A DNA stretch of 55,987 nt, filler included, from Dugesia japonica (taxonomy: Eukaryota), in assembly GCA_001938525.1 (NCBI GenBank). It is 6 parts of 6 records of this genome, joined end to end, with 100 filler letters (N's around TTAATTAATTAA, not from the genome) between each part and the next. Parts side by side here need not be neighbours in the genome. Positions count along the whole stretch, not along the records: positions 9,757 to 20,449 come from MQRL01604509.1; 5 more parts are not named here. One strand, written 5' to 3'. The first letter of the stretch is position 1. Every line of letters begins with the position of its first letter. The notes below the pieces were generated by a model. It saw only the letters and a program-made list of their open reading frames with translations, was not told the origin of the DNA and searched no databases. The position numbers and the translations under genes were made by a program. Below are positions 6,099 through 31,066 of the stretch, piece after piece.

Positions 6099-6184
6099 CT
6101 GAAAATAAAAAAAGCAATTTCAATATGAATTTTAAAATTTCATGAACAAAAAACTTGTTTTACTAAAATTAATTGAAAATTTAC

Positions 6185-9081
6185 CTTGAACACTAAATTT
6201 ACCACTATTGTTATTTAAAGGTGACTTTGATGATTTACTTCTGGTTTTTCCATTGTCTTCATTTGTTACGTGATTAGACTGAATTGTAGACTCCAATTGT
6301 TTATTGGTTTGATTGTTTTTGCTGTTTTCACCGTTAGTTTTATTTGTACGGCTATAATCATTAATAGCACTTGGGATTGCGTTTCGATTGATAGAAACAA
6401 ATTTATTAGAATCAGTGGAGGGAAATTCATGATTAGGTAGAGAAGATAATATTTGAGATTGGGAAGTTGTTAATGGTACTGATGAAAGAGTTTGAATACC
6501 TGACGACGATAATTGGAAAGACTTTCGATTAGACGACTGGGGTAATGTATTTTTTTTTGATGTTGAAACATTAATCCAGTCTGATCCAACTGATTTCTCT
6601 GAATTGAGTTTTCCTTTGCCAATATCTTTGACTTTATGAGCTCTTTTGTTAGTTAGAGGTTTTTTGCGGGAAGCTCTTGGTTTAATATCGCGATAATCAT
6701 GTTCATTGGTGGATCCGTTAACTAGATCTGAGCTAAGAACTGCTGGCATTAAGGCTGGAGGTTTATTTGAAAGATCTTTAGGATCATCATAATTCTCTGA
6801 GGAAGAGCTATTATGGCGATATGACGATATTCTATCAAATTCTGTACAAATGACTAATTTGTCACAATCTCCTGTTTTCAAATCAATTTCTTTCTCTAAT
6901 ATTGGTGCGGGAGTATCATTTGTTTCAGATAGATCAGAATATCCTGGACTATGACTATTTTCTTCATCAGTTTTGTATTTTTCACTTGATATACAAAATT
7001 CATCGGAATTGAGTTTAGAAGGAAAGTGCTCATTTGTTATGTGCTTCGGTTGAATAGGATTTAGAGTAAACTTTTTGTAACGGTTAGATTCGTGAAAATT
7101 TAATCTAATTTTTTTCTCTGGTTTTCTACGTTTTCTTTTTAGTGAACTGTTTTTAAGACTTTCAATTTTATGAATTAAATTTTCATCGATGCTTGCGCTA
7201 CAATCTGACTTTGAAATAGGACTAGGAAGAATTTGACGTTGATGTGATATATGAATATTAGAAATGCCAGATATGCTTGGTACAATTATTGATTGCGAAA
7301 CTGGATATGGAGATGTGTTTATACCAAGATGACTTGTAGTAACGGTAGAAGAAAACTGGGATGATTTCGGCTTTGGTTGGATGGGTTTTAAACTACCCAG
7401 TGTTGATAGCCCAGATGTAGATGTGAGATTTGTTGTAACAGACGTCCGTCTAACTGACAATTGCCCATTATGATACATATTGTTAAGTGAATTGGTAACG
7501 GACTGCCCTGTAATACTACTCGTGCTTGTTATAGATGAAGTACTAGAAATAGTAGTGGATGTAGCAGGTAATATTGGTGTTACTGGTGATATACTTGAAG
7601 ATCTGATGTGTCGTGAAGATGGATTTGGAGAAGTAACATTCAAGTGAGATGTAATTGGATACATTCTATTAACATTCGTGTTAGTATTTTGATTAACTGA
7701 TACTTTTAATGGAACCAACGGTCGTTTTTTAATTATTACTGGGGTGGAAGACGGAATTTGGAATGATTCTGTTGCGCAATTAGTCTGAGAATTGGATTTT
7801 GTTGATTTAAATTTACGGCTTTGGGAAGAATGATTGGCTGACCCTATTGGGTTTTGATTTGGTTTAGGTCGAATCAATGTTGGGCATGATATCGTAGAAT
7901 TTGTAAAATTATTTGATGAATTGATCAATTCAACTGGTATGGAAACGGTAGGAGCTGTTACAGTACGTATACTGGGTGATGAATGAGAAATTACGGTGGT
8001 TGAAGATGTAAAATCAGAAACACTTTGAGATATATTTTTTGAAGTCGCTGAGGTTGATTTACTTATTGATGCAATTGACTCGATAGTCATTGCAGAAGGT
8101 CTATCTTCAATGTTGCACGAAAACGTCTCTTTAATTGAGCAAGTTGTAGGCAACAAAATATCTGAACTGACAATAACATTTTCTGATACTTTTGGCAAGG
8201 TTACTGAAAGCTCTTGGAATTGTGGAGACAAACTTTCTGATTTGATAAAAGGCTTCATATCGTTTGTTTGATCAATGCTTTCTTTTTCTGATATTTTTAG
8301 ATCGCCTTTATTTTCAATATAATTATATGATAATTTATTTTGACATTTTTCTGTTTCAGAATCAGAATTGAATTCAAAATTATTCGTTTTGATATTGATT
8401 TCTTTATTAATTATTCCATTTAACTTAATTGTTTTTACGGGTACATTTTCCTGGGCATAAGAATCAATAATGGTGTTGTTTTTTTCTTTTTCATTAATCG
8501 TTGGTTCGATTTTAATGGAATTATTTTTACTGTTATCATCAAACAAACTACTATTATCATCAACAATATCATGAGTGGAAATATTTTCTTTGCTTCCATT
8601 ATTATGGCATCTTTGTACATGATATTGATAAGCAGTCAGATCAACAAAACGTTTAAAACAATTTTCTTTACTACATGGAATTAAGTTGATATTATTATCG
8701 TCAATAGAGTTGGAGTTATAATCACACAATGCTGTCTTGTTTAACTTAGTGATAGATCTCGTTACTGATCTCGTTTTGCTACTTGTGGAAAATTTAGAAT
8801 AAGAATTTTTATCTGTATCAGAATCGCCACTGGCACTGGCCGTTGCAGATTGGTTAGTGGAATCGAAATAGTTAATTAGATTATTACTTTGCCTGGTGGA
8901 TAATTTCTTGATCATGCCATCTGAATTAGAGGCATTCATTGATTCACTTAATCGACGACTGTGACGAATGTTATTTGACCGTAGACCAAAATGATTTCCT
9001 GGATTTCCAACTTGTCGTTTTTTCCCTCGAGTTGAGCGATTAGATGGACGTCCTTCGAATTTTCCTAGATTTTCTTGAGAT
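6185..9081 (-). CDS. Large internal exon of a ZNF608/ZNF609/scribbler(brakeless)-like C2H2 zinc-finger transcriptional co-regulator
   Basis: Open frame of about 965 codons, extending upstream of the ORF-track Met to an acceptor TTTTAG| at 9082 (SQENLGKFEGRPSNRSTRGKKRQ, resembling the RGRGKR segment of ZNF608/609). It has a single C2H2 finger, CSKENCFKRFVDLTAYQYHVQRCH, and the family motif HSPGYSDLSE (cf. SPAYSDISD). The remainder is Ser/Thr/Asn-rich. Donor at 6184. The upstream exon was not located in the window. Confidence 0.8.
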
Positions 9082-9756: not shown

Positions 9757-12151
9757 AATAATAATAATCTTGATAGTAGTGGTGTATTAAGAAAATTCAT
9801 AACCAAAAGTAAGATTTTTCTTAAAAATTATTGAACCTCAATAAACCAGAGTGTAACTCCAAACCACATTAGATAATCAAAGAACTAATGGTGACAAAAT
9901 AAATCTGACAGAAAACAAAGTATTAAAAATTCAAAGAATTTTACCTTCATCGAAAAAGAAATAAAATAATTAATTAATGAAAAATAATAAATTAAATGAA
10001 AATTCGTGAATTTCTAATGAAAAAAGAAAAATCAAAAATTCCTGAAAAGAATAAATAACTCAAAAAAAATGAATTAAAATGTTGAAAAGCCTAGAAAGCC
10101 TAAGTATCTAAACATTCTTTACAATTTGAGATATTATTTAACAAGAAAAAGATGAACGAAAAGAGATAAAAATCAATGAAAAAAACTTATAAGTATAGAC
10201 AAACATTATTATCTCTCATACTAAAATGGCTGTAAAATCGAAAAGAATTCGTTATAAAAGAATTTTAATGAATCTCAACATAAATCTGAGCTTTGAAAAT
10301 AATAGAAACTAAGCTAAATAGGAGAATAAAGAGAGTTAAAAAATAAGCATTAATGAAATATTTTATAATATGGTAGATTTAACAGAGTTCANTTTAACTA
10401 ATTATTAGAACTTTTAACGATATGTTAGATTTCTCGGTAAATTACAGTTTTTAATTTACCGATGATGACATTATTATATTATTGAAGATTGTTCTTTTGA
10501 AAATATGGTATTAAAAGGTATGCTAATGGTGCCCTAGTTAAATTTTTAGCATTCAGACTTACCCTATTTTATATTATAAGTAAGTAGCTTAGTAGAGTTT
10601 AAAAGTTGTTTTCTGAGCAAAGATTTTCTTAGTAAAGAGTATTGGCTAAATAAAAAAGAATAAAGTTAAATAAAAATTTTAAACCGGAAATTGATCATTT
10701 TAAAATATTGAATACTTAAATTGATTTATTATCCTCAGTAGTATGTGATTTCTTTATACCGTTAAAAGTTTAATAAGTGAAAAAGTGCATTAAAATACTA
10801 ACCTCAAAATAATTTATTGTATTCTAATTGGCTGCCTATAATATAAATAAAATAAATTTATATGCATAAAANNNNNNNNNNNNNNNNNNNNNNNNNNNNN
10901 NNNNNNNNNNNNNNNNNNNNNNNNNNNNNNNNNNNNNNNNNNNNNNNNNNNNTTTTTATTATAGATAAGATTAAAAACTTATTAAACTTTTAACAGTATA
11001 TTAAAAAATATATGATGATTTCCGGATATTTTAATTTAAATCTACTTTGCGATCGAATGTTTAAAAAAATTTGGGTTTTTTGAATTTGAAAACTTAGTTA
11101 CTTTAAACTTAGCTTGAAAAAGGTTACTTGGTCAGTAGTTTAATAACTAGTAGTGGTTTGTAAATGGAGAACTGGGTACATAAACTTCATGCTACACAGC
11201 ACACCTAAAGTTTTGGATAAAAGTAATTTGATAATAATTATTATAGTTGATGTCCAATTTTTCTTAAATAACGACTGAATATAATTTTTTTTTATTAATA
11301 TTACTTTTATAAAAATTAAGAATTCTTTAATTTTTTAAAAGAATAAATTTTTAATAATAACTTCATAGTTTTAAAATAATTTTAATTAAATAGAATAATT
11401 GAAAGGGATTTTAATTTTAAAATTTTATCAAAACTTACATTGTTTTAAACCTTGGTGGTGGATGATTTTTATGGGAGGGCTGAATACAATTATAAATAAA
11501 AATCACTACGAGTTAAAAAAACACATTTTTATTGACAAATATTTATTTAAACATATTTATCATCATAAAATTATAAAAACCTGTTAAACGTAATATGACA
11601 CAAGTATAGACAAGCCAAAATACGTAGTGCGGACTGCGCTGTTTGCAGCTCACGATATACCTATGTAACATATATACATACATATACATATATACAAAAC
11701 GTATATTACGGGTTACCCCCACCTGCTCAATACACTGACTAAGCGGTGTGGCTTGGTCTGCACCAACTGCGGCCATGATGAGTATGCAAGCGCACTGACT
11801 TATATAATACACACATACAGAACGCTTATCGAGGTAACTAGTACCTACACTTCAAAAAATAAACATATTACTTACGGAAATAATATTTATTTTTAAATAA
11901 TCGCATAATAATGTAATAGCTATAATAATTTTAAAATGTTTTTATATTGATGGGAGGGCTGCAGAGGTCTACTTAAGATAAAAGGTGTTATTAAATTTAA
12001 TCTTTAAAATTTAACATTTTTCTTAAAACTTTATAGAAAAATATACAATGTAAATATTAAAAGACAACGCACCTTAATTTAACTAAATATTTTATTAAAG
12101 TTAAAAAAAACAATTTAAACATTTTAACTAAGAACATTTATCAGCAAAAGA

Positions 12152-12516
12152 ATGAATATTAATAGATTTCCAATTCAATATCATCATTCGAAAAATTCTT
12201 GGATGACTAGAGAAGTCTTCGATATTTGGAAAAATGAATTGAATCAACAAATGAAATTAAATCAAAGAAATACATTATGGATTGGAAACAACGCATCCCA
12301 TCATGTTAAGATTCAACTAAGCAATATTGACATGATATTTCTAACTCGAAGAACAGCATTTTTAATGCAGCAAATTGAATGCCGGAATAATAAAATCTTT
12401 GAACGATAATTGTGAAAACCTATATGTTAAACCTTATATTTTCTATGTTGATGATGAAATAAGCGTATGTTCCAAACAGATTGACATTCTTGATGTGATA
12501 AAATTAAAAATTGATG
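12152..12516 (+). mobile_element. pogo/Tigger (DDE_1) transposase remnant, left part; the right part resumes at 17332-17460
   Basis: YHHSKNSWMTREVFDIW...NNASHH...IFL..T..MQ is a DDE_1 signature. Removing the insertion restores IKLKID-AWHNVTEITIINCFNKAF. Confidence 0.8.
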
Positions 12517-12770
12517 TGTCTGGGTTCCACCTGAACTAGATAGTAGAGAAAAATAGTGGCTGGGGAAAAGCAGCCTTCAGGGGAACCCGTTCAAGAATTT
12601 ACCCTACCGCCCCTAGGATAGGTATTCAGCTCATAGCGGTTGACCTCTCTCTTAATGGGAGGTACACACCTATAAACCTTTGTTTTTGGGTTCATTATTT
12701 TCCCTATCATTACTAGCAGAAGGAAGAAATTACGATTTTTAATTACATATATTTTATTTCAAGAAAACTA

Positions 12771-13168
12771 TTATAGTAAATCCAGTGCCCCTGGGTCTAA
12801 CCACTGGGTGGGATCCGTTATCGAAAAATTGAAGGCGGCGATGTCGTCATCGTCGTCCCATTGAGTCCAGGTTGGGTTGCCTATTTGGCGGGAAAGATCG
12901 GCAATGTATTGTTTGAGGAAATCGATCTTTCGTAACAAAAGTTGCTTTGACTCGGTTTCTAAGAGTTTGGCTTGAACCTCAAGTCGTTCTGTTTCTTCAC
13001 GACGAGGTCTAGTTTTTTTATCAATCGGTCACGTTGAGCCAGATGTTTAAGGAGAGCCCGGTCTGCTTTTCGTTTTAGGTGGCGCTCCAATAATAGGCGA
13101 CGCATGATCCGGTGGCACCTCCGTAAACTTGTCTGGAATACAATTCGTGGCACTAAATAATGAGACAT
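12771..13168 (-). pseudogene. LTR-borne accessory ORF D: basic region plus leucine-rich coiled coil and acidic tail, interrupted by a frameshift near 13015
   Basis: ATG 13168 (MSHYLVPR...RDRLIKK), then the -1 frame from the A7 run reads TRPRREETERLEVQAKLLETESKQLLLRKIDFLKQYIADL...WDDDD...ALDLL* (TAA 12773-12771). AATAAA at 12758-12753. Confidence 0.5.
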
Positions 13169-13324
13169 TAACAACGGTGGAGAATTACTAAATATCAGTG
13201 ATATTGAACCAATTTAATCAAGATCTAAGCGATACATATTAAGACCAAAACTACTATTTTTAAATTTTTATTTGTAGAACAGAAAGTTTAGGTATGCGGG
13301 GTGGATTTTGTCTGTGTGCTCTTG

Positions 13325-13609
13325 TCAATCATGAGGGGTTCGAGGTATGATTTTTCTTAAGACGCCGGATATCATTGACCAGTTTATTTTCGCGGTCATG
13401 GACCGGATGATCTCGGCAAACGACTCTACCTGTGCTTTCCAAATTCTTTCTTGGTCGTGGGCGGCCTCCATCTCTTTGCGTACGTTAACGCATTTATTTT
13501 TATAGCGTTTCACTTTTGCGTTGGCCGTGAATATCCCGGCTCCGAATCGACGTTTCGCCAGTCGATATAACTCCCAGAACATTTCGGTGTCCTCGCTGGA
13601 GTCTCTCAT
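13325..13609 (-). CDS. LTR-borne accessory ORF C (94 aa from MRDSSEDT), unknown helical/coiled-coil protein
   Basis: GC-richer open frame. Acceptor-like AG at 13651-13650 and CAG|ATG at 13611-13610. AATAAA at 13272-13267. Confidence 0.55.
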   Translation of the reverse strand: MRDSSEDTEMFWELYRLAKRRFGAGIFTANAKVKRYKNKCVNVRKEMEAAHDQERIWKAQVESFAEIIRSMTAKINWSMISGVLRKIIPRTPHD

Positions 13610-13798
13610 CTGCTTATTGGGGGCCGATGGACGGTTTAATGAGGAATCACTATAACATAAACACAATAAAATTATGTAATCTAAATAAGACTGCTTATAG
13701 ATCAAAACAAAACGAAACAATAAGGGGTTTTAACCACTCGAAAACAAAAGACAGAGAAAAACCAATTCCTAACTAAAACTTTATTTTCAATTGCTGGG

Positions 13799-14227
13799 TT
13801 ACACTAGCACATCTGTGATTTCCTCTTCAGAGTTTTCGTTGTTATTGCTGGTCAAGTCATTACGGGCACTCCATAAATAATTATGCACGAAGGAAGACAG
13901 CTGCGAAGTTGAGGGTAAGCGGTTTTTGGTGATACCGATCAAAGATGGACCATCAAGCCATAATCGTTCTACTTGTGGAACCTCGGTTGATCGTTCAAAA
14001 GAAAGTGGTGCCGGTGAGAAGGCGACTCTATCTCTCCTTGGGCCACACCAACTATAATAGGCTGCTCTCTCAGTTGCATCCCATTGTCGATCTGCAGGGA
14101 TTTGTTCAATCGGGACATTAGAACGATCTACTAGCACACCGGCGTCACGATTATAGGAATTTTGATACCGCCGGAACATGGTTTGACCGGAACGGATGTC
14201 CAGGCTCACTTCCCATTTATATTCCAT
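13799..14227 (-). CDS. LTR-borne accessory ORF B (142 aa), unknown protein
   Basis: Intact GC-richer ORF. Acceptor TATTGTAG| lies 10 nt before the ATG. AATAAA at 13785-13780, just after the stop. Confidence 0.6.
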   Translation of the reverse strand: MEYKWEVSLDIRSGQTMFRRYQNSYNRDAGVLVDRSNVPIEQIPADRQWDATERAAYYSWCGPRRDRVAFSPAPLSFERSTEVPQVERLWLDGPSLIGITKNRLPSTSQLSSFVHNYLWSARNDLTSNNNENSEEEITDVLV

Positions 14228-14430
14228 ATTGTCGATTCTACAATATCAACCGGTGAAGTTACATCTAAAGTCAATAGGTATAATTTGATAATATTTAGAT
14301 TTTATTTAAAGTGAGTAATTTAAAATTAAAATAAGACCTAGGGTTTATTTTACAAGAATGGCATATAACTCAACACCAAAACAAAATGTATTTTCATGCG
14401 AATGGTTTCCCCATGATTTCGAGTGATCTG

Positions 14431-14616
14431 TTATTCCTCATCTATATCCACTTTATGCTCGATTGGAAACATTTCAAGGAAACATTGGAGATCTGTCTCG
14501 TCGGAGTGCTCCACCTTGCCCCTTGTTAAATAGTGGGCTATTAATTGTTTTAGGCGCGTAGTACGACGCTGTTTCCGGATTTGACGAAGGGTGACTCGTA
14601 GTTCCGTTGAAATCAT
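14431..14616 (-). CDS. LTR-borne accessory ORF A (61 aa; basic N-half, acidic C-half)
   Basis: TTTTAATTTTACTCTAG|ATG. AATAAA at 14349-14344. Confidence 0.5.
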   Translation of the reverse strand: MISTELRVTLRQIRKQRRTTRLKQLIAHYLTRGKVEHSDETDLQCFLEMFPIEHKVDIDEE

Positions 14617-17600
14617 CTAGAGTAAAATTAAAATTATAGATCTAATCATGATTCCTTTCTCTGGGAAGCGACTAACTAGAGAGGTTAATCTCGATGAAAT
14701 CTTAGTTGCTGAAGATATGGGTGTGATTGCTGCGTAATCCTATTCGTGATACCCGCGGGATCAAAGGAAAGTAGGGGTGTGATTGAGAATGGGGTAGGGA
14801 ACGCTGGCAAGAGTATAGGGTCCTTTACAATAACCAGTTGTATGCATTCCTTACAATGTTACCATTAACATCCACACTAGCGAAGACAGAATTCTAACAC
14901 GGAGGTTATTATCAATGGTAGGTTAATCCGGTGCACCAAATGGCCTTAGTAATATCAACCATTCTAATTGTTACGATTAGAACGCTTACTGCAGTACTAC
15001 GAATTATCACATGGATAACCAGAGACGGGTAATAATAATCGCGAGTAATTTACGGATAAGAATGACAGTAACCCGAATTATAATGACAATAATATATGAT
15101 AGAAACGTCATAACTTTGCATGTCTTTTCACCTAAAGCATGTATTGACAGATAATAAGAGGTTATATAAAATAAAAATTCATATTTGTTAATAATTCTTT
15201 TATGGTTATCGCTATAATTTCATAGAACCAATTTGGCAGTTTACTATTTTATCAATCTTTTATAAGGCGCCTCTAATATTCCCTTCAGTACTAGTTAGAA
15301 TAATGATAATAATAAGACTTAACTGAAATTAAGATCAACATTTATTAATAGATTTTCCATCGTTATCATAATAATTTTGTAGAACTAATTAAGGGCTTAG
15401 TATTCCATCAATATCCAAAAAGGTACCATTAATTACTCTCTTTACCGTTAATTAGCATAGTGATTAATTAATAAGAATTTATCTAAAATTTAAAATAGCC
15501 GAAACAAAAATTTATTTTTCTACTTACGAAATAATTTTATACGAATGAAAAATTATGAATCTAACTCCCAATCATTATGAAGTGTTATACCCATATGTCC
15601 TGCTGATAACCGCACGATACTCATATGCTCTTGGTCCAGATTTATATCTCCACTAGAGTATTTGAGTTGCTAACTCTAATTAAATTTCGAACGAGAACAG
15701 AAAGTTGGTGAGATATTGCAAAGTAAGTTATATACACTTTGTTATTGATTATCCAGATAATTTTCTACTATGCGGCGCTCAACTGATTATCCACGAAAAA
15801 TAATAGCACACGGATACAACCTGCTGCTTGCCGAGTTATTTGTCTATATATATGATGATTTCTTTTGTTGCGACACTCCTTCACTAAGTAACAGTTGGTG
15901 TGTATGACTAGTGATGTGGATTCCTTAATGTGTGTAAGTGAGCAATCGGGTTGTATTTGAGTTATGGTGTTACTTAGTTAAAAAAAAAGAAAATATTGCA
16001 CAAGGCTATGTAGAAAATCTGGTGAGTAATCCTAGCGGCTACTCCTGAACAATTCATGCTTCCTTCACTGTTTTGCATTTAGTGTAGTTAAAAAGGGATC
16101 GGCAGAAGTTGTGTTACTTTCCATTTGATCTCACAATCACCGATGACGACCTGGCAAGTGATATCTAAAAATTATGTTTCTTTTTTTTGTTGTCTTTAAA
16201 ATTAGTTTTATAATTCATTAAACTAAAGATAAATTATCATCAATTATTTATTAGATATTAGTACATATTTCTTGAAATATTATACTGAATTTAACATAGA
16301 ATATTTTACTCTCTCTTTCTAAATTTTCTCTGCAACGGTTAAAGATTTGTGGGTTGACTGTATCGTCTGCGATAAACGGAAATTCTCTGTTTTTCGGCTA
16401 GATCTTCCTGGTTCACCACTAGAGTATGCGTATACTATAAGTTCGAGAGAAATTTCGATTAATAAATTAATTGATAAATAATTCTGCCTTACACTTTACT
16501 CGTGATACAATGGTAAAGAAGGTCCTTTTACAACAAATTTGTTCTTTTTCGTGATAATAGTTTATCGTTGGTTTAACTAATAAATTATGCACAAGTTTAG
16601 TTCGGTTTTTTTGTAGTTTAATCTAAAATTTCGGAGGGGTTTAAATACGATTTTCTTACGCAACTCGGCATCATTGTGATTGGACACTATTTTTAATTCA
16701 AATTTCTTCCTTTCCATTGGTTCTAGTGTTGATTTTTTATATTTTTATGACTTTCTTGGCTTTCTATTGGCCTCTATTTTTNAATCAACATGTGATGATC
16801 GGGTCTTTGTTACATTTTCTTTTCTTATTACCCTATTGGCCCAATCTTCGAACCTTTGCAGGACCCCTCCTGATGGCAGTATAATTTTCTAGTAGTGAAT
16901 TTCTGATGCCCATTTACTTTTTCTTTTCAGTTTTTCTTAAAGAAAGTCTCTGTGGCTTCCCTGAGCCGAATTATTCGTGTACACCGGTTTTTTGCCTAAT
17001 TTTACTTCTTTTTTTTATTTCAGAATTAATTAATATTTTTTGATAATTAATTATTTTCTCATAATGATTTTCCGAACTTTTATTATTAATTTAATAATTC
17101 TTCTTAATTCTCAATATTGATGTATGTTAGTTTTATTCACCTGATTCTTCGCATCCATCACCAGTTTTATTCTTTCTAAGGATTATTTTCGTCATATCTT
17201 ACCGAGATCTTAATTGTTTTTCCCTTTTGATTTTTTTATGTTTGATGAACATAATGGCCCGATTGTTTTTCTTTACTGATTTGAGCCTTCGGCCTTATTT
17301 TCTTTTCTCTAAGGGGTGTTTTACTCCAACAGATGCATGGCACAATGTGACTGAAATTACTATTATCAATTGTTTTAACAAGGCATTTTCTTATAATAAC
17401 CCGATTGAACAAATCAATGAATAAGAAAACGAAGATATTGACTATAAGGTTGTTTTTAAAAAAGTGAATTAAAAATTTTTGTATGTTGAGACTAAATTTA
17501 TTAAAATTATATTATTGGATATTTTAAATTAAATCATTAAAAACATTTTTGAAATAAACATAAAATTTTTGTGCAATCAAATATTTGATGAAAACAAATT

Positions 17601-17856
17601 CTTAATTTGTAGTAAATTTAAAATTCGTAATTTACAGTGTATATAATAAAATATTATAATTTTAATTCGTAGTTATACATTAGTAATTTTAGTAATTAGT
17701 AATTAACAATTAGTAATTTTCTTTTAAAATATATTTTTTTACAATTGCAATTATTGCGAGAATAATTGTTGGACATAACCATTGATCGTTTTATAGAATT
17801 CATTTAATATAAAAGTTTAGATCAAAATTTAGGTTTTATTTATCGATGTTGGATAA

Positions 17857-17893
17857 CAATTCGATATTTCGACCTTGTCTTCGTCAGGAATTG
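17857..17893 (-). ncRNA. Minimal type I hammerhead ribozyme (Penelope-associated)
   Basis: Minus strand reads CAATTC-CTGACGA-A-GAC(AAG)GTC-GAAA-TA-TC^GAATTG: 6-bp stem I, intact core, 3-bp stem II, palindromic minimal stem III (ATAT), AUC cleavage triplet. Confidence 0.8.
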
Positions 17894-17929
17894 ACTTTTA
17901 GTCAATTCAATTCAATTAAGTCAAAAAGT

Positions 17930-17966
17930 CAATTCCTGACGAAGACAAGGTCGAAATATCAAATTG
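17930..17966 (+). ncRNA. Second minimal hammerhead ribozyme copy (one stem I mismatch)
   Basis: CAATTC-CTGACGA-A-GAC(AAG)GTC-GAAA-TATC^AAATTG, with a G-to-A change right after the cleavage site. Confidence 0.7.
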
Positions 17967-19722
17967 TTATCCGATATCAATTAATAAAACCTAAATTTTG
18001 ATCAAAGCTTTTATATTAAATGAATTCTAAAATATATTTGTTATTATATTTTCAAATTTTACGTTTATTTATTGAAAATTTAAATAAATTAAATTAATGA
18101 AATATTTTTTTAATAAANNNNNNNNNNNNNNNNNNNNNNNNNNNNNNNNNNNNNNNNNNNNNNNNNNNNNNNNNNNNNNNNNNNNNNNNNNNNNNNNNNN
18201 NNNNNNNNNNNNNNNNNNNNNNNNNNNNNNATTAGTGATGAAACGAAACCTAATCCTAATGTATAAAATTGCATTATATTAGGTAATATTAGTTAATTTA
18301 GGTTGATTTTTCCCTGTGTATTTAGTTGGGAAAATTTATTGTACACAAATTATGTCTTGAGTTTTTCGATGAAAATATGATTTTTAAAGGGTTAATTGTG
18401 GTGTATTTTTCTAATGATTATAGTTGGCAAAATTATTTTGCACATAAATTATGTTACTTTTAATCGCATTTTGAAAAGGTCGGCGAATTATTTTAAAATT
18501 TTAGACTTTTTAGCTGGAAAAAAGTTTTTAGGCTTTTTAAGCGGTAATATTTTTTCAAGCTTTTTAGTTGCGAAAATTTTTTTACGGGAATTTATTAGGA
18601 TTCCGGTCAAACCGTTCATGTTGTTTAAATAATATGAAGATTTAAAATTTGTTTATATCAATTTTTTTGGGAATCCAGAACATCCAACATTTAAAAAATA
18701 ATATTTTCAATTTTTATAACATATAGATATTTTTACATCAATTAACTCAGAAATTTACGGCAATCATTCTTGGTTTTCCAAATATTTTGCACAGAATTAC
18801 TGTTTCAAACTTGTTTTGATTTATAAAAGTAATAAAAGTAACAAAGTAGAAATTAATAAAATAAATCGTTTAATTATACTAACATTTATTTATAAAAGTT
18901 TATTCAATCTTGTGAGAATAATTATTAATTATAAGAAAATAATTATTATTTAATAATTTTAGCCAATATTAATATTAGCGATTAAATTGAATATTAAAAT
19001 TTAATTAATTTATCACTTATCATCTTATCAAATATCTGTTTTAGTAGTGAAATAAATAATGTCTGAAAATATTAGTTTTGATTTGGAAAATGTTATTATT
19101 AATTGAAGATTTCTCTAACAAATATAATTACTAAGAAATTTTATTAAAAATAGATATTAAAGTATGTTTTTGATTTTTTGGGCCAGTTTTCAAAAAAATG
19201 CCACAAAAACGAGGTTAGGCTGTATTAATAAAATAGTTTGTTTTATTTATTCCATTGAGGTTTAAAAGTCGACAAGCAAGCCCACATTTCATCCTCGATT
19301 TTGATAAATCTTTCTCAATCTTTTGATTTGGTTTCAGTTAATATATTTGCAAGAGAAAATTTTTATATTTTTAAATTTTCAATATTTTCTAACATTTTTA
19401 AAAGATTTTGTGACAAACCATTTGGAAAACATAATATAATATAATCATATTTCATAATCATAATTCTATAATATAATCACTTATTAAACTTTAAGTAAGA
19501 TTTTATACATATAAATCTATTTTACTTATATTATCGGCAGCCAATCAAAATACAAGAAATTATTATTAAGTTAGTATTTTTCACTTACTAAATTTTAAAC
19601 AGTATAGCAAATAATATTTTATAACTTAATGATAAAAATAAATCTCATTAATTATTGCATTTAAAATGTCAATAATGAAATTAAAGAGTCAATGAATACT
19701 AAAATAAATTCATATAACAAAA

Positions 19723-20259
19723 ATGGAGGAAAAAAGAAAACAGAAAATGGATTATTTTTCGTATTGTGCAGTTTTACTATCTTTATGCTTTTTAATAATA
19801 GCTCTATCCAGTCGTCTATGGGGTTGTGGTTATATTATAACGGAATGCTTTTATGACAAACGCATCCAAGAACATTGGTCACGTAAAATGGCACTAGTGC
19901 TTTCAATAATATTCTTTTTCATTGCCGGAATATTAATGATAACTTTTTCCATACTTTTTCTCATTTCTTTATGTTCCGCAAAAACTAATAATTTCAAATT
20001 AAGAAAAGGTATTATAATAGCGATATTGTCGATGAATATGTTGGCAAATATATGTTTTGCATTGGCATGCCATAATATTCTATGGAATCAAATGCTGTTT
20101 CTTGTCACAGGTCTTTGTTGGAGTTTAGGTGCGCTATTAAGATATCATGCTGAAATTAAAATTATAATGAGAAATAAAAAAGCTGACAAAAAATTGAGGA
20201 AACAGATGGGAAAAGATACGTGTCCTGAACCGATTTTGCATCCTTATTCATCAAGTTAA
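19723..20259 (+). CDS. Intronless four-TM membrane protein, claudin/PMP22-superfamily-like (flatworm tetraspanning-orphan/Sm25 type)
   Basis: Intact 178-aa ORF with four hydrophobic segments, W-G-C-G-x5-C (LWGCGYIITEC) in loop 1 and a basic C-terminal tail. Context AAAAATGG; AATAAA about 40 nt after the stop. Confidence 0.7.
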   Translation: MEEKRKQKMDYFSYCAVLLSLCFLIIALSSRLWGCGYIITECFYDKRIQEHWSRKMALVLSIIFFFIAGILMITFSILFLISLCSAKTNNFKLRKGIIIAILSMNMLANICFALACHNILWNQMLFLVTGLCWSLGALLRYHAEIKIIMRNKKADKKLRKQMGKDTCPEPILHPYSSS

Positions 20260-20549
20260 CTTTAAATTTTCTCAGTCAAAGTAGTATTAAACCAAAATAA
20301 AAACAAACAGAACTGTATATTTTATTAATTAATTAAAAAAATTATTTTAGAAGTATATTAAAATTTTTAATTGCTTCTGAATTTAAAATAATAAATCTTT
20401 AAACTGCTCTTATTATATGTATTGAAAGAAATTATAAATCTGAAATTCCNNNNNNNNNNNNNNNNNNNNNNNNNNNNNNNNNNNNNNNNNNNNTTAATTA
20501 ATTAANNNNNNNNNNNNNNNNNNNNNNNNNNNNNNNNNNNNNNNNNNNN

Positions 20550-20806
20550 TTCCACGCCTGTAGTTAATCAAATTTTGAAAATCTTTGATAACATCTTTCT
20601 CCTTCTCAAATGCCATGCGTAAATGAGCTTGAAAACCTTCAGCTTTTTTCAACGTCTTTGCATATTCTTCCAACAAATTTTCATCTAGCAAACAAGAGAC
20701 TACTTTCTCCTGTTGTTTCCCATGAGTGAAGGTTTTAGCTTCAAAATACAATTCACATCGCTTGATAAATTTCTCAATATCATCTCCTCTGTAGAACACT
20801 TTTGGT
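20550..20806 (-). mobile_element. Gypsy gag N-terminus fragment
   Basis: FYRGDDIEKFIKRCELYF.... Near-identical DNA recurs at 35061-35100, just downstream of a tRNA PBS. Confidence 0.55.
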
Positions 20807-22729
20807 NNNNNNNNNNNNNNNNNNNNNNNNNNNNNNNNNNNNNNNNNNNNNNNNNNNNNNNNNNNNNNNNNNNNNNNNNNNNNNNNNNNNNNNNNNNNNN
20901 NNNNNNNNNNNNNNNNNNNNNNNNNNNNNNNNNNNNNNNNNNNNNNNNNNNNNNNNNNNNNNNNNNNTTAACTAAATAATAATATTTAGTTATCTCAATT
21001 CTTATAAGCTGAAATTATTAATTAATAATTATTTCCTCATAGGATTATTTATTTATTTGTGCATCTAATATTAATGAATATATAACACTTTTACTTAAAA
21101 ATCCAGGGCTTCAAATTTCATTAGAACTAACCCCCTATCATATTGCTTGATGGATTATCTATAAAAACAAATGCTCTAATCTCTATCTCAAACCTCACTA
21201 AAATATTTGTTTATGTATAATTTTGGTTCATCAAGTTAGTTTTAGAGCCTTCAAATCTAATTATATATATATTCAATGTTGCAACCTGTTACCATTGTCA
21301 TTTTCTATTTTGATTTTGTAGTTGAAAATAAATAATCTGGATAATATTTATTATTATATATATATCAACTTTTTCATTCTTTTTACTAATTTCTGTAGTT
21401 CATTTCCCATCTTTTCAAAATTATTAATTTTATAGTAATAATAATTATACTAAAAATATTACTCGCAGTCTTTCATTTATATGTTAACAAGTGTGTTTTA
21501 AATTGATAATGTTTTTAAATATAATGATATTTAGAAACTTATTATCTGACAATTATAGACTTTCTTTTTATACATATAATTATTAATAATATTAGTATAG
21601 AATTTCATTTAATAAATCTCATGTGTTAAGAATTTCTGAAGCAAATATATACGATCTGAAAGGGAGGTACTATATTTACCCCCACTCCCCAACATACTAT
21701 AATCTATTTGTTAATTATAACTATTGTATTTATATTATACTAGAAACAATGCATAAAATATGACAATATATGTTGAGCCTTTTCTTTGTTAGTTAAATTA
21801 ATAAAAAAACCTTAAATTAGCAAATTTGTATTAAGAAATCTTGTCTAAAAAAATCTACAAAAAATTGAATACCAAATTTTCAGGAATTACTTTATTGATT
21901 CATTTATGATAAATAATATTGATTTTTAAATAGATTTTATACAAATCGGACTTTTTCACTCAATTTCCGTAAAAATCCAATTAAAACCTTTTGCGCAAAC
22001 TAAAAACATGGGTAATTATCAACGAAATTATATAAAAATTTGATACCGCTTTATTTCAATTTTGCTATATTACGCATAACGTTGTTTTACACTAAATACA
22101 CTGGAAAAAATCTCCGCAATAATGTAATCATTACCTAATATGATGTTATAAAAAGTCTAAACTAAAACCTCAGATTAAATTTCTTACATCAGTAATCCTG
22201 AGAGGCGAGATTTTGGCTAGTGTGCTCAGTAATATATATTTCGTAATAAAATTGCTAGGTATTCTGACCTTTTTAGTAATATTTTCTCAAATTGGTTCAT
22301 TGTTTTCATACGATGGTTATTATTTCGCTCATTTGACGGGTTAAACTTTTTTATAATAATTTTTCTCATTTTGACTGAAATCATTAATATAATATGCATT
22401 GTTAAAAAGTTTACTTCAATTCCTATAGTCACGTGTTTAAGCAAAATAGTATATTTTTGATTCATTCTTACATTTTCAGTGAAGTAATAGATAGTTCGAA
22501 ATCTTTTGATTTCTTAGGTATTCATAAAGCACACATAATTCTTTTTAACTTTCTTTGAAGATGCTGTTTTGAGTACATTTTTCGAAGAGGAAGCCAAAAT
22601 TAGTGGTTTTCTTATCTATGATGATCCTATTGTTGAAAGCCTTTTGCACAGTTATTATTAAGTAAAAAAAAATATGTTTCTAATTGTAATCAGAAAAATT
22701 AGGCTGACCAAAAATTTATTATATTTATC

Positions 22730-25360
22730 ATATTAATATCACAAAGACTCCCCTATTTGGTTATTTTTAATATTTATATTTTATAATGTTAATATCACAA
22801 AGACTCCCCTATTTGGTTATTTTTAATAGTTATTTTTTTATCATGAAAAAATCACAAAGACTCCCTTCTTTCAACTTTTTTGATAGATATATTTTAGACT
22901 GTCCAATATCTTGCAATCATATCAAAAACTAATAAAACTACCTCAATATTTTAATACTGAATACAATATGAATACAATATGAAAGCAATATGAATGCAAT
23001 ATGAATGCAATACAGCAACACGTGCCTGGGAATTTTTATTGATTTTTTTAAAATAATGCGTTATGTATGCATGTCAAATACCAAAAGAATGCAACACAAA
23101 TACACTGAAAATCTCGTGCCTTGCAATTTTTTATTACTAAAGGCAATAGGTATGCATCTCAGATGCAACTCAGATGCAACACACATACACTGAAAGTCAC
23201 ATGTCTATGAATTTTAGACTACCCATCCCATGCAAAATATAGAGACCACCCTGATCTCATGCAAAAAATAGAGATTACCCCAATATCATGCAAAATATAG
23301 AGACCACCACTATTTCATGCAAAATAAATTAATTTAATTAAAAAAATTGATTTAATTTAATTAAATTATATTAAAAAGATTTCCACCCACCATTGCAATG
23401 AAAAATTTCTTTTTATTTCAATTGCATGCCAAAATAATTTTTTTAAAATTCAAACGAAAATATTTTTTGAATTTCCGACCAAAAATAAAAAGACTCCCCT
23501 CTTTCCCGTTCGAAAAATATAAAATCCACCTTTCCTAGTCAAAAAATACTCAAAATCCATCATTTTTATAAAAATAACATTACTTTCATCTAATTCATCA
23601 ATTTAAGCAAAATACATCATTTTTAACAAAAATATATATTTCCAAAAATTCCGTCACACATACCTGTCAGAAAAATTTCAAATAATTATCATAATATCTG
23701 ATAATTAATTGTCTTTCTACACATACCACTCTCCCCCGCCCAAAAATTTTTTTACCACTTTAAATATCATAGACCATATTACTATGGAACCTTTATATAT
23801 CATAGACCATATTAATGGAACCTTTAATCATAATAGACCATATAATAATGAAACTTTTTTATTTGATTAACCTAAATTTACATTAAATTAATATATAAAA
23901 GAAATAAACTCACCATTTTAAAATTCTCCATTTTAAATGCATTTAAGATATTAAAATTTAAAATTCAATACATTATTAATTTTTGTTATTTTAATATCTT
24001 AATTGCATTTAAAGTTAAGAATGCTAATTTATATTAGCATAATTATAATAATTACAATAATGATAATATAAAATTAAGTAATCAATAATTATATTGATTT
24101 TTTAATTTCTTATTATCATAATTGTAATTGTTATAATTATGTTAATATAAAATGAAAAAAAATTTAAATCTTTAAAAACTATTTTATTATTTACATGGCT
24201 ACCGATTATTTACTTAGTTACCATTTCTAGTTTGCATTATTTAGATAGTTACCCTATGTGGGAGAGGTTTATTTTAGATTATTGCTTTATTTTAGTGGTT
24301 TGAGTAGTTTAAAAAAAATTTCCAGGCAAGTGTTGGTGTGTTGCAATTGTGTTGCATCTGAGTTGCTTAACTATTGTATTTATTTAAAAGAAAATTCAAA
24401 ATGGCAGCTATATTGAGTTTTAAAAAAATCTGAGACTTGTGATTTTCAGTGTATGTGTGTTGCATCTAAGTTGCATGGCTATAGCATTTATTAAAAAATC
24501 AAAATGGCGGCTATGTTTAGTTTTAAAAAATCAAAATCGTGGCAATGTTCACTTTTAAAAAATCAAAATGGTTGCTATTTTGAGATTTAAGACATCAAAG
24601 TGACGGTTATGTAGAGGTTTAAAAATCAAAATGGTGGCTATGTTTAGTTTTAAAAATTTTCAAAAGTGTGATTTTCAGTTTATGTGTGTTGCATCTGAGT
24701 TGCATACCTATTGCATTTATTAAAAAAATGCAAAATGGTGGCTGTATTGAGTTTTAATTTTTAGTGTAAGTTCGTTGCATATGAGTTGCATTATTATTGA
24801 AAAATTCTCAGTCACGTGTTTTCAGTGTATGTATGTTGTAGCTGTGTTGCATTTATTAAAAATATCTATCAAAAAAAACAGCAAAAATGGGGTCTTTGTG
24901 ATATTTTCATGATAAAATATATCAAAAAAAGTTCACAGAGGGGAGTCTTTGTGATATTATCATAATAAAATATTCTAATAAAAGTTCAAAGAAGAGGGTC
25001 TTTGTGATATTTTCATGATAAAATATTTCTATCAAAAAACTTTGATATTTACATGGTAAAAAAATATCAAAAAAATTCAAAGAGAGGAGTCTTTGTGATA
25101 TTTTCATGATATAATATTCAAATTAAAACTTTTTTTACAAGAATATAAAAAAAGATTTATTTTTTCATAAAAACCTTAACTATATAATTTTTTATATAAC
25201 GAGCATATAAGTGATGTAATTTTAAATAAAAAAAAGTATCATTAGTGTTGCAATTTTTAATAAAAAATCTCATTACTGTTGCAATTTTTAATAAAAAGTC
25301 TCATTAGTGTTGCAATTTTTAATAAAAACTATCATTACTGTTGCAATTTTTAATAAAAAA
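22730..25360. repeat. Modular foldback/tandem repeat region, probably the terminal or non-coding part of the adjacent Maverick
   Basis: ATCACAAAGACTCCC x3 (22740-22865) is mirrored by GTCTTTGTGATATT x4 (24890-25105). ATGCAACTCAGATGCAACACACATACACTGAAA (~23163) is mirrored at ~24445 and ~24675. Tandem units CATGCAAAATATAGAGACCACC, AAAATCAAAATGGxGGCTAT and CATTAxTGTTGCAATTTTTAATAAAAA are also present. Confidence 0.75.
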
Positions 25361-25691
25361 CATATTGGTTGAGAATATTTCTGAGAACAAAATATTTTTC
25401 ATAATTGTATAGGGTTTTATGAGTATATTATTTGCATATTAATCGTGTAATAAGATGTCACCATGCAAAATGTATGCGCGCGTCATTCACAATGCATGCT
25501 CGTGCTATGTTCATTAGTAATTTAGGTAACAAATTATATCCTTTTAAACAAATTACTTCCAATCATTTCCTTTAAAACATTTAGTGTCCAATAAAAACTA
25601 ACAAATAGCGAGTATTTATGTATCGCATCAAGTATATAAACATCAGGTTTTCTAAAATAAGTAACTTTTATATTTCAAAGTTGATAGCAAA

Positions 25692-25972
25692 ATGAACCAA
25701 ATCGAAAGAGGAATTAAGCAAATTACAGATGCAATTACCAACGGATCAGTGGAAGAAATGAATAAAGTGAAAATACAAATTAAAAAATTCGCAGATGAAA
25801 TTACGAGTGGATCCGTTAACGAAATTCAATTCATAAGCCCGATTGACAATGGTCTATTGAGAAAACATGAGTATCTTGATTTCATTGTTCGTTCAATATT
25901 CATGGAGAAAATTAAGAAAGAATTGAAGAAACAAAAGAGAAATAAATTTATTGCTGGTATTTTATTGACATC
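25692..25972 (+). CDS. Unknown ORF, probably Maverick-associated; runs into a gap
   Basis: 93 open codons from AAAATG; TATATAAA at ~25633. Confidence 0.35.
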
Positions 25973-26970
25973 NNNNNNNNNNNNNNNNNNNNNNNNNNNN
26001 NNNNNNNNNNNNNNNNNNNNNNNNNNNNNNGTTTAATAAATATATTTGAATAATAATTTTATTTTATTTTTCTTGCATTATTTATATCAAAACTTAGAAG
26101 TAATAAGTAATTATAATATTCTTTTTTTAATCGTGTATTATATGGTTTATTTACACAATAACCATGTATTTATACATGTTATGTTCACAATAATAAATAA
26201 TAATAGGATTTAAATAAATAGGTTTATTTAAATAGAGTACTTGTGTTTCTTAGTATTATTAAAAATAAATAATGAAGACCTTTTAATAAAACATATATTT
26301 GTTTATAATACAAATACATGCAAATAGATTTTTATGTGTAATGTTGCTTCTTTTATTATAAACTGTTATCTAGTGTTCTCCACATAAATTTGTTGAATGA
26401 ATATTGACGATTAAGGCATTTTTTACCGAAATAAGGTGATTTAAGTAACATTGATGTACTCCGTTTAATCTAAATAGAATTAATCAATAAATTAAACAAT
26501 AACTCTTACTTTATTACAAATATATCAAGAATGCATAGCATTGTTTACACCAATACTGTTCCGTTTTCTTTAATCTGAAATTCTTTTTCAAATACTCCAT
26601 AAATGTAAACAATTTTTACTTCGATTGTGTTATTTTTTTTTCTTTTTCCAATTGATCTGTCTGATTTCTTCACACGTGTCGTCCCTTAAACAGTAATCTC
26701 CACAAAATATTTGATTAGCAACGATCCTCTCTGTTAATAAGCTAATTCCGGATAACAATGAGCTTTTCTGTTCCAATAAGTGACTTTGTTCTGCTCCAAT
26801 AATCTGACCTTTAAAGTTTTTAATAAAATTTCTGCTTATTTTTTACAAAAATTCACCTTAATTTTAAAGGTCAGATTATTGGAGCAGAACAAAGTCACTT
26901 ATTGGAACAGAAAAGCTAATTTTATTAAAAATTTTAAAGGTGAATTTTTGAAAAAAATAAGCCGATGTTG

Positions 26971-27960
26971 CTAAAGCTTTCGCAAACTTAATTGACTCTG
27001 ATTTATTCCACAATTCATATTCTTATCCAAATATCCCATATTTCGTACTATAGTTTGCATATATGTTGTGGCATAATTATCGTTTGCAAAATCCTGAGTA
27101 TATATTTCTCGATGATTGGTGTTTTTCGTCAAGGAAACGGACAGAGCATCTAAATTTTGATATGTTGAACTTGAGCTTATATTCCTTATAAAACGATGAA
27201 CTATCTTTACTAATTGTAAATGCAACGACTTCTTTAGTTCTTATTGGGTAAACAGCATTTCGCTTTTTTAGACTCATTTGATGAGCAATTAGTACTGAGG
27301 ATTCAACGTGTACACGTCTAACCATTAATTTTGCATCTAGTAATACATATCTTGGTTTAGTAGCTGCAGATTCCAAACAAATCTTAGTAGGTGATCGTTT
27401 CAATCGAATATGAACATTGACACCTGGAATAAGGTATTTTGGTTGATCCATGAAATCAAGTTGCAATGAACCGCATAGAACCAATTGTTTTGATATTTTA
27501 ATAGACTTCTTTCTATCTGCTTCTGAACCATATTTCATTGCTGCAAGATATTTATTCTTGCTATCATCGTTATAATTTAATATAGTTTCAATTATTGCTT
27601 TATGAAGATAAGATCCATTTCCACCTTCAATTTTGAAATATATTAAGCGAAAGAATTACATCCTTAAAAAGCGCATGCAGCATATAATTACTAGGAACTG
27701 CATCATGAGTGTCATTCAAATCTTTACCAGCCTTATCAACCACCTTCACTTTAATATACAATAAAGTATCATTCAAATCCAAATATTNTGTTTGAGATCC
27801 ATAAAGAAAAAACTCTACATCACTTTGTGATTCAGAAATTGAATTCATAGAAAAGACATCTTCAAAAGTATCACTTTGAACTACAGCTTGTGGAGATGGT
27901 CGATCAAAAATACATAGTTCAGTTTTACCGCAAATCATTTTTCAAAGATTGTTCCATGTC
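26971..27960 (-). pseudogene. Maverick/Polinton major capsid protein (PY, double jelly-roll), fragmented
   Basis: KTELCIFDRPSPQAVV...DVEFFLYGSQTxYLDLNDTLLYIKVKV...LQLDFMDQPKYLIPGVNVHIRLKRS...AVYPI match recalled Polinton MCP motifs. Contains frameshifts and an internal deletion. Confidence 0.85.
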
Positions 27961-27964
27961 CTGT

Positions 27965-28377
27965 CATTCGTTTGTATAAACTGGATCCATGAGATTTCTG
28001 ACGTTTTCTACTATTTTGTGGTGTTTGGACTTGATTTGATAGCATATTTGTTATTTCAGATGGTATTTTATTAGTTATGCTTTGCGGTAATATAATTTCT
28101 ACTTTTGGAATCATACTAATTACTCTACTAGGTTAGGAAGAAACTACATTATCAAGTGCAGCTAATGGATTAGATTTCAATGTTGGTAGTATTTTTCCAT
28201 TATTAGTTAGAACATTCTGAGCTGTTTTCATATCAGAAGAACTAATACGTCTAAGAATAAGCAAAGCAAAACTCCCTTTGTTCGAAACCAACCAGATACA
28301 TAAAGTTTTTCGAGAAAGTAAGGTAATTCTCCACCTGCTTGACTAGTACTATACAATGATACAATATCAGGGTTCAT
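27965..28377 (-). pseudogene. Maverick small core-like protein lying between penton and MCP
   Basis: MNPDIVSLYSTSQAGGELPYF has a QxGG motif like adenain-type cleavage sites. Position in the capsid module fits. Frameshifted. Confidence 0.55.
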
Positions 28378-28379
28378 TA

Positions 28380-29482
28380 TTAATTTTTCTAAAATGTAAC
28401 ATTAAATGTGTTTTTGAATCTTCAGCAAAGTTGACTAGTTTTCAACTATCATCACGTATATAAATTTCTATATTGTTTATATATGACGAAAAAGTAGGTA
28501 AATATATTGAATGATCAACAATTATTTGTATTATCTCATCATTCTCATGTTTTTCTATCCATATTGCTTTCAATAAGGAAACATTAACATCTCCAACAAT
28601 TATAGGTTCAACAATACTACAATAGATGAACATTTTATTATAAAACTTTAATATTGTAGGTTTTTTATTACTTTTATATGATATTTCTTTATCATTCAAT
28701 TGTATTCGAGTATATTCAGAGTCTTTTAATCCTAATGTTTTTGTTAAGATTTTATCGAATTTACCACTTTTAGTTCTAGTTGCTAATGCAAATTCAAATA
28801 GTTCATCTTGCTTTAAGGAAAACGATTTAAATAACCGTGGAAGATGTTTCTTAAAATAGACATTTAGTTGATTTAAATCCTTTATATACATTTCAGATTT
28901 AAATTGAAAAGAATTTTTAGTTACAATCAGATAAAAATATTTAATTTTTATTTTTTCGATGGCTTCGTCGTTTTTAAAATGTTGAAAGCCAAAGAAAAAA
29001 TGTTGTATGTCCAAAATTTTTACTAGTATCAAAAACTAATTTAATATCCGCACTTACATATTCATCACTAAAATGTGTAAATCTTTCTAAAGTTTCCTTA
29101 GTATCAAAGAATAAACTGTGGTATGTATTATCACTAGTAAAGATTAAAACATTTTCTTTCGATAATTTTATAACTGTTTCAGTATTATTTTTATATTGGT
29201 CTTTACTATTAATAGTTAAAAGAACTTTTTTTCTTTATTGTTAACATCGAGTATTATTTCCTTTTCAATTAGTTTAAATAATTCATATTCAATTCTAGAT
29301 TGACTGTAAATCAGCTTGGCTGAATATACAAAGGTGAAATCCATCAATTCAACTTCCCATCTACTTTTCATGTAAATTGGATTTTGAAGTTCAACAATGT
29401 AATTACTAGCAGTATTATTTGTATGAACTAACGGACTACTAATACTAGGTAGAAAAGTATAGAAATTATTTGATTTCATCAA
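28380..29482 (-). pseudogene. Maverick/Polinton minor capsid (penton, PX), fragmented
   Basis: N-terminal FYTFLPSISSPLVHTNNTASNYIVELQNPIYMKSRWEVELMDF and C-terminal MFIYCSIVEPIIVGDVNVSLL...YLP...INNIEIYIRD. Confidence 0.85.
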
Positions 29483-30122: not shown

Positions 30123-30166
<44 letters not shown>

Positions 30167-31040: not shown

Positions 31041-31066
31041 TGGGAATAGCCTTCTTCATAATATAT

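Follow-up and report, generated by a model that had tools for sequence, protein, structure and literature searches.

A solo-LTR-like insertion in Dugesia japonica enclosing four minus-strand reading frames, each with its own acceptor-like AG and AATAAA

The insertion and its four reading frames

The window, that is, the whole stretch of Dugesia japonica DNA analysed here (55,987 nucleotides, filler included), contains a 4,815-bp unit with TG...CA ends at 12517 and 17331, which encloses a minus-strand array of four reading frames. A 4-bp target-site duplication lies on either side of the unit. The unit interrupts a transposase frame, which picks up again at the duplication when the two flanks are translated separately. 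The left flank matched PF03184 (DDE_1) at 12152-12406 (E 5.5e-7), and the right flank carries the motif AW..V...TI.NCF, which we take to be pogo-like. Contig 1 of the genomic DNA run X1 departs from the stretch at 12516.

12152..12512, plus strand: pogo/Tigger-type transposase remnant, left part, split by the insertion
12513..12516, plus strand: target-site duplication, left copy, 4 bp
12517..17331, minus strand (probable sense strand): solo-LTR-like insertion, 4,815 bp, TG...CA, flanked by the duplication, no end-to-end repeat
12517..12752, minus strand: terminal ~240 bp beyond the last AATAAA, putative R/U5, highest read depth
13168-12771, minus strand: ORF D, ~130 codons, frameshifted; AG 13189-13188; AATAAA 12758
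13609-13325, minus strand: ORF C, 94 aa, basic, predicted helical; AG 13651-13650 or 13611-13610; AATAAA 13272
14227-13799, minus strand: ORF B, 142 aa; AG 14239-14238; AATAAA 13785
14616-14431, minus strand: ORF A, 61 aa; AG 14618-14617; AATAAA 14349
14628..17331, minus strand: upstream part of the putative LTR, far lower depth (measured up to 16350)
17332..17335, plus strand: target-site duplication, right copy, 4 bp
17336..17420, plus strand: pogo/Tigger-type transposase remnant, right part; frame resumes at the duplication

Given the TG...CA ends and the 4-bp duplication that splits the pogo-type remnant, the unit is most likely the solo LTR of a giant element, presumably of Ty3/Gypsy type. 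No direct repeat was found between its two ends, and no gag-pol was found within it by Pfam scan of ORFs A to D and by translation of the upstream 2.7 kb. An LTR border near 16135, our first guess, was dropped; there is no duplication there and read depth runs on past it. The minus strand is A-rich at 16517-17316, resembling the coding strand of a giant element elsewhere in the window, and on this basis it is taken as the sense strand. The stretch 16500-17331 is A-rich and possibly decayed coding sequence. The upstream part holds 9 stop-free stretches against 5.5 ± 1.9 in shuffled sequence (p 0.06).

The preliminary description had reported four minus-strand frames with AG sites and AATAAA signals, three of the frames being intact, and had placed the array inside an LTR. 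Every coordinate matched to the base, ORFs A, B and C are open, and the location within an LTR holds for this copy. The frames have a GC content of 0.44-0.47 and the spacers of 0.24-0.33. Four of the five AGs rank 2, 7, 19 and 26 of 276 by a crude T-richness score and the AG at 13611 ranks 171; of the two candidate acceptors of ORF C, that at 13651-13650 is the likelier. Fifteen contigs depart from the stretch at 13647, near this acceptor. The AATAAA of ORF B (13785) is followed by a T/GT-rich tract. The frameshift of ORF D lies where two frames overlap (13028-12959); by eye, its product has a basic first part, a coiled-coil-like middle and an acidic aromatic tail. Three extra minus-strand AATAAA motifs are present within the array, at 14306 and, inside ORF C, at 13498 and 13388, and were counted on the negative side.

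Chance, conservation and repeat depth

The four-frame layout is far above chance. ATG frames of at least 55 aa cover 0.59 of the minus strand compared with 0.095 in locally shuffled sequence, a coverage attained in 1 of 2000 shuffles. All four stops have an AATAAA within 90 nt, for which the joint shuffle chance is 7e-5 with a distance window chosen after seeing the data.

ORF B has a homolog, P0001, with 53% identity over 76 columns (E 1e-17) and the same start Met; residues 1-74 are conserved. This similarity supports the conservation of at least ORF B as a protein. The other of the two matches in this search, P0002, proved to be a leucine-rich repeat protein from a fern and was discarded. 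Among the differences listed for the frames (40 of 202 rows), 7 of 17 were synonymous, with 22% expected (p 0.066). No function was found for any of the four proteins. The Pfam scan of A to D gave neither a family match nor a transposase family, and word-based homolog searches with ORF B, ORF C and the second part of D gave nothing at E 0.01 among proteins of near lengths. Atlas returned no usable match for ORF B and only rows under 0.9 for ORF C, with recognition values of 1484 and 1659, under the mark of 2300. No PDB sequence matched at an E below 0.6, fold searches with the ORF C model gave no match at E 0.001, and Rfam gave 0 matches; the single-sequence models themselves were poor (pLDDT 40.5 for ORF B and 63.6 for ORF C). 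Related-locus scans gave two loci (E 1e-3), discarded because they lie in antisense to a gene of a phage tail region, and otherwise nothing. It is likely that the four frames are genuine accessory genes belonging to the parent element.

In run X1, 4,027 contigs were aligned to the stretch. The distal 2.1 kb belongs to a high-copy repeat, whereas abundance upstream of it is lower by a factor of 10-100. Bin depth was 1,336-23,104 in the coding bins, 340-1,400 in the three spacer bins, 5-142 upstream and 9.5 in the flank; by the tool's own warning, such depth is no copy number. It drops at 14628, upstream of ORF A, from about 1,300 to 86. The frames are thus common to very many relatives in the genome. 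The contrast between coding and spacer depth had p 0.005 at a cut chosen afterwards, with GC as a confounder; tested by rank correlation it was not significant (p 0.23). The cassettes had been suggested to be exchangeable between families; this finds partial support, in that A to D travel together in the high-copy set and the variation lies in the sequence upstream of ORF A.

The giant element at 47.4-56 kb of the window encodes rve, BIR and RING. Separated from the unit by 30 kb and broken by a gap (47302-47401), it has no sequence in common with 12517-17331. The array had been likened to the IAP region in layout but not in genes. The layout is indeed shared by two cassettes of that region, a third being interrupted by a gap, and there is no sequence similarity between the two cassette sets. 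In the giant element the order acceptor, ATG, stop and AATAAA is found on the pol strand, and internal poly(A) signals therefore do occur in cassettes on the sense strand of such elements.

Expression of the array and alternative explanations

Three RNA runs (5.2 billion letters, no positive control) yielded 15 partial reads, none of them 95% alike. There were 0 junctions in these runs, at almost no coverage, and no start or end pile-ups. Run X13 gave 0 reads, a result that the tool's own label discounts. The 14 reads of run X10, which stem from more diverged relatives, all fall on A, B and C, in 5 bins.

Minus-strand donor-like sites are found downstream of the array at 12669 and 12602 (2 of the four best) and upstream of it at 17140, 16917 and 15527. 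TATA-like minus-strand sites lie upstream of ORF A at 15852, 15646 and 15541. A weak TATAAT (12775-12770) stands directly before the last AATAAA; it overlaps the ORF D stop codon and failed the TATA pattern. Short-R retroviruses likewise have a TATA just before the last AATAAA. Two plus-strand motifs, the TATAAA at 12671 together with a GC box (12607), would suit the opposite orientation.

On balance we think it somewhat more likely than not that the unit is a solo LTR whose accessory genes, lying in U3, would be active in full-length elements, with expression from the 3' LTR, and not in orphaned LTRs, solo copies being passive. One promoter near the distal end of the LTR, in the 5' LTR, would drive a long transcript, and a common donor just downstream of it would be spliced to the acceptor of A, B, C or D. 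The AATAAA of each cassette would terminate its message. Copying would be limited to RNA that extends as far as the last AATAAA (12758) and thereby contains R, and in this way the whole array would end up in both LTRs. Recombination between the LTRs would then have left the solo copy 12517-17331, which may have been decaying since. We counted for this model the ends, the duplication and the interrupted transposase frame, the layout above chance, the ORF B homolog, the depth profile of run X1, the cassette layout of the other giant element, the donor-like sites downstream of the array, the TATAAT, and the 0 RNA reads 95% alike despite many copies. Counted against it were the plus-strand TATAAA and GC box, the upstream donor-like sites, the failure of the TATAAT in the TATA pattern and its overlap with the stop codon of D, the weakness of the depth contrast, the low share of synonymous differences, the 0 RNA junctions, and the finding of a homolog for ORF B and for none of A (by Pfam scan), C and D. 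No full-length element, primer site or polypurine tract was seen in the window or the short contigs.

A self-contained module, in which a promoter and a donor within the LTR and ahead of ORF A, in sense or antisense to the genome, would let every LTR, solo ones included, make the four proteins, is a rather unlikely alternative. The upstream TATA-like and donor-like sites agree with it. So does the plus-strand pair near 12607-12676, since the array would then be antisense and need its own promoter, as does the confinement of the X10 reads to 5 bins. However, these reads are mixed in direction, and DNA or pre-mRNA would fill the same bins; the would-be promoter region is absent from the high-copy set, and no close read or junction came from the three RNA runs, which had no positive control. 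Its broader form is a little more doubtful still; in it every LTR of the family would be a free-standing four-gene unit with a promoter, a shared leader, alternative acceptors and poly(A) sites, and hundreds of dispersed mini-operons for orphan proteins would persist after the element is gone and be reshuffled among subfamilies.

It is improbable that in most relatives the array is internal, before a shorter LTR, and was absorbed only where a rare subfamily shifted its LTR border upstream. The last 240 bp are the deepest (31,168 and 11,614, against a coding-bin median of 3,584) and the upstream part is rare, as such a shift would predict, but ORF C, at a depth of 23,104, matches the terminal bins, U3 variation between subfamilies explains the rare upstream part equally, and in this copy the array sits between the ends. 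A non-LTR mobile element with a 4-bp duplication and cargo genes is very improbable; neither a second LTR nor gag-pol is linked to the unit within the window, yet the unit has TG...CA ends with only 5 of 8 terminal bases inverted-complementary and no long inverted repeats, and A to D match no transposase family. That repeat DNA richer in GC produced these frames and signals by chance is scarcely credible, for although family, fold and Atlas matches are missing, the shuffle tests, the bias to one strand (4 vs 1) and the ORF B homolog with the same start argue against it and largely refute it for B.

Comparison with known systems

The usual view of LTRs is that they are regulatory and overlap no more than one gene. 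A single LTR with four orphan genes, each having its own acceptor and poly(A) signal, implies that expression follows a virus-like programme, with regulated read-through at several poly(A) sites. Repeat masking would keep accessory genes of this kind out of gene annotation. According to work cited in PMC13465017, host stem cells benefit from a planarian giant element through its accessory IAP gene, and further accessory genes hidden in high-copy repeats would therefore be direct RNAi candidates.

Burro/GYPSM1 elements, planarian Ty3/Gypsy, are described as having thousands of copies, more than 30 kb with LTRs, accessory ORFs and a BIR/RING gene (PMC6431247, PMC13465017), and the window too holds a giant element with rve, BIR and RING. 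The description in PMC6431247, as far as available to us, mentions neither genes inside LTRs nor per-gene poly(A) cassettes. The LTR at 12517-17331 is set beside Burro by description, there being no sequence link to a named Burro family. Burro1 is reported to be abundant in RNA (PMC8532177), whereas this LTR subfamily had no close reads in the three RNA runs.

MMTV sag resembles the array as an accessory gene in U3; it is described as expressed from a spliced mRNA, and the MMTV LTR as long because sag overlaps U3 (PMC9147501). However, MMTV has one gene in a 1.3-kb LTR by that account (PMC9147501), whereas here there are four in 4.8 kb, each with an acceptor and AATAAA, and no sequence similarity between sag and the array was found. 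Foamy-like fish ERVs are described with several 3' orphan ORFs under purifying selection, a long LTR and a 4-nt duplication, but the genes described there are placed either between pol and env or after env, none being arrayed within the LTR (PMC5210030). They are retroviruses, unlike the probable solo LTR here, which is presumably of Ty3/Gypsy type.

In the adenovirus major late unit, one leader is spliced to many acceptors, each group having its own poly(A) site. This is like the proposed working of the array, but in an unrelated DNA virus, whose replication, unlike that of the proposed array, needs no read-through to the last site.

Four minus-strand frames in an LTR-like unit

Four cassettes of orphan, likely accessory genes, each cassette being a frame with its acceptor AG and its AATAAA, form a real, well-bounded array within what is best read as a solo LTR. 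The coordinates in the preliminary description proved exact, and the frames are as follows.

Frames of the array
14616-14431, minus strand: ORF A, 61 aa
14227-13799, minus strand: ORF B, 142 aa
13609-13325, minus strand: ORF C, 94 aa
13168-12771, minus strand: ORF D, with a frameshift in this copy at the overlap of two frames

ORFs A, B and C are open as claimed, and ORF D is disrupted into two overlapping frames. The frames are indeed GC-richer than the spacers (GC 0.44-0.47 in A to D versus 0.24-0.33 between them), and each of the four stops is followed by its own AATAAA at 12-81 nt, as had been described. The joint shuffle chance of such signals after all four stops was 7e-5, for a 90-nt window picked post hoc. 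Three further minus-strand AATAAA within the array, two of these inside ORF C, speak against a tidy picture of one signal per frame. ATG frames of at least 55 aa take up a share of 0.59 on the minus strand and of 0.09 on the plus strand; local shuffles gave 0.095, and the observed coverage was met in 1 of 2000. By our own crude score, the AGs at 13651, 14618, 13189 and 14239 ranked 2, 7, 19 and 26 among 276, and the AG at 13611 ranked 171.

In two contigs of the DNA run X1, at depths 31 and 9, the ORF A stop is linked to the ORF B start (14227/14432 and 14228/14431) and the spacer of about 200 bp is missing. Their short side is only 22 letters; they weakly suggest that in some copies A and B may abut, with poly(A) signal and acceptor both gone.

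The unit that holds the array (12517-17331, 4,815 bp) starts with TG, finishes with CA and has a 4-bp duplication on its flanks. It splits the remnant of a pogo-type transposase (PF03184, E 5.5e-7), whose frame picks up on the far side, and an X1 contig of single-copy depth departs from the window sequence at 12516. Neither a direct repeat nor a long inverted repeat was found between the two ends. The unit is best explained as a solo LTR.

Also within the LTR, 14691-15098 (GC 0.40) corresponds to a 408-base X1 contig of depth 4.7, a single-copy level. Its minus strand has stop-free stretches of 57 and 45 codons, with a hydrophobic 70-codon stretch farther upstream, and it is possibly what is left of a fifth cassette, now decayed, that only this subfamily has. 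A degenerate tandem duplication of about 160-180 bp (68% alike) occupies 15151-15490.

Elsewhere in the window, the broken minus-strand frames at 27077-29732, which by eye we take to be Maverick/Polinton-like, gave no Pfam match for two of them and are flanked by mutually inverted arrays of 29-56 bp repeats (22.7-25.4 kb). On the minus strand, 6132-8939 holds an exon of 935 codons, rich in Ser/Thr, whose C2H2 finger is aberrant (PF17017, E 0.0075); it likely belongs to a host gene. An intronless hydrophobic plus-strand frame of 178 aa (19723-20259) had no confident family, and a palindromic MITE-like repeat family with arms of about 109 bp occurs at 17737-18032, 30632-30882 and 41481-41627.

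Relatives and protein products

We compared 12350-16350 at 88% likeness with X1 (one of the 8 runs with matches) and three of 7 raw RNA runs. X1 placed 4,027 contigs on this stretch, among them 2,388 at 90-95% likeness. X1 depth, which according to the tool's warning is not copy number, was 9.5 in the flank, 5-142 upstream of 14628, 1,336-23,104 in 11 coding bins, 340-1,400 in three spacer bins and 11,614-31,168 in the final 240 bp. Because single-copy contigs here have depth 4-9, we infer that the distal 2.1 kb is part of a family whose size is on the order of hundreds, if not more; the upstream part would belong to a small subfamily. Coding bins exceeded spacer bins in depth (p 0.005, with the cut picked post hoc and GC confounded), and the rank correlation gave p 0.23. 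Among the 40 differences listed out of 202, 17 fell in tested frames, 7 synonymous and 10 nonsynonymous with no stops. The synonymous share of those 17 (22% expected, p 0.066) is a weak test, since at most of these sites only this copy departs from the rest.

A full phmmer scan with ORF B matched two proteins. P0001, a singleton from a 512-base contig, aligns with residues 1-74 at 53% identity from the same Met (E 1.3e-17); it has diverged yet keeps the start and the tryptophans, which is good evidence that ORF B encodes a selected protein. The second match, a fern repeat protein, was discarded. Searches found no homologs of ORF C or the second part of ORF D, the ORF A scan covered Pfam only, and family, structure-sequence and fold searches, the last with ORF C, found no family, solved relative or fold. 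By eye, ORF D passes from basic through coiled-coil-like to acidic with aromatic residues, a make-up that, as a guess, would suit a trans-activator.

Orientation, proposed expression and RNA

At 16517-17316 the minus strand has an excess of A (skew 0.32-0.39), and this resemblance to the coding strand of the neighbouring giant element (0.22-0.27) suggests that minus is the sense strand of the unit. We infer the following scheme for U3/R/U5, promoter and splicing. The last AATAAA (12758) would mark the end of R, followed by a U5 of about 220 bp, the stretch that is shared most widely. A weak TATAAT at 12775-12770, directly ahead of that signal, would set the transcription start near 12745. R would then be very short and the poly(A) signal would sit within U3, as in MMTV and avian retroviruses. 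All four genes would thus lie in U3, and a 5' leader would be spliced into the 3' LTR; donor-like sites are present at 12669 and 12602, downstream of the TATAAT. Each cassette message would stop at its own poly(A) signal, and only read-through to the last signal would yield a copyable genome.

In a solo LTR so arranged, the promoter would lie downstream of the genes and A to D would be silent. The preliminary description had instead proposed a self-contained module, each LTR, solo ones included, expressing its own genes. We regard this as improbable; TATA-like and donor-like sites upstream, and a GC box with TATAAA on the plus strand at 12607-12676, keep it and an antisense reading alive.

The RNA portions read were 1,592 million letters of X9 (about 6 in 100 of the run), 1,888 million of X10 and 1,749 million of X13 (about 25 in 100 each). 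One X9 read, 14 X10 reads and no X13 read were placed on 12350-16350, all partial. None in these portions was 95% alike, and the 15 reads held no junctions, start pile-ups or end pile-ups. The X10 reads were confined to five bins over A, B and C in mixed directions; they come from more diverged relatives and may be true transcripts or background. The blank itself may reflect a diverged population, since there was no host gene as control and only the species label is shared with X1. The RNA result tilts weakly against strong expression of this subfamily.

Comparison with known systems

The primary Burro papers are reportedly Grohme 2018 and Lee 2026, as named in citing papers; these and their supplements, which may annotate such frames, lay outside the literature searched. 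Within that literature, including the available parts of PMC8532177, PMC13465017, PMC11410931, PMC13238120 and PMC13524379, no four-gene LTR array was found.

The neighbouring giant Gypsy-type element at 47-56 kb bears BIR and RING domains (comparable to PMC6431247). As the preliminary description held, the array has the same layout as its IAP region with other genes: acceptor, ATG, stop and AATAAA follow on the pol strand, and no sequence is common with A to D. This decayed element (47350-55987, minus strand) has an integrase followed by accessory frames, among them a coiled-coil-like one and a BIR...RING IAP gene that a stop near 48729 cuts in two. Following pol, two orphan frames (52872-53360 and 51783-52385) are mutual paralogs (31% identity, E 4e-20). 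Together with the AT-richness of the DNA, this Gypsy-type element and its BIR and RING domains suggest that the host is a planarian.

Burro elements bear accessory ORFs (PMC6431247) and foamy-like fish ERVs have multiple 3' accessory genes (PMC5210030). MMTV has a single gene, sag, in its U3 (PMC9147501), whereas the putative LTR described here carries four cassettes.
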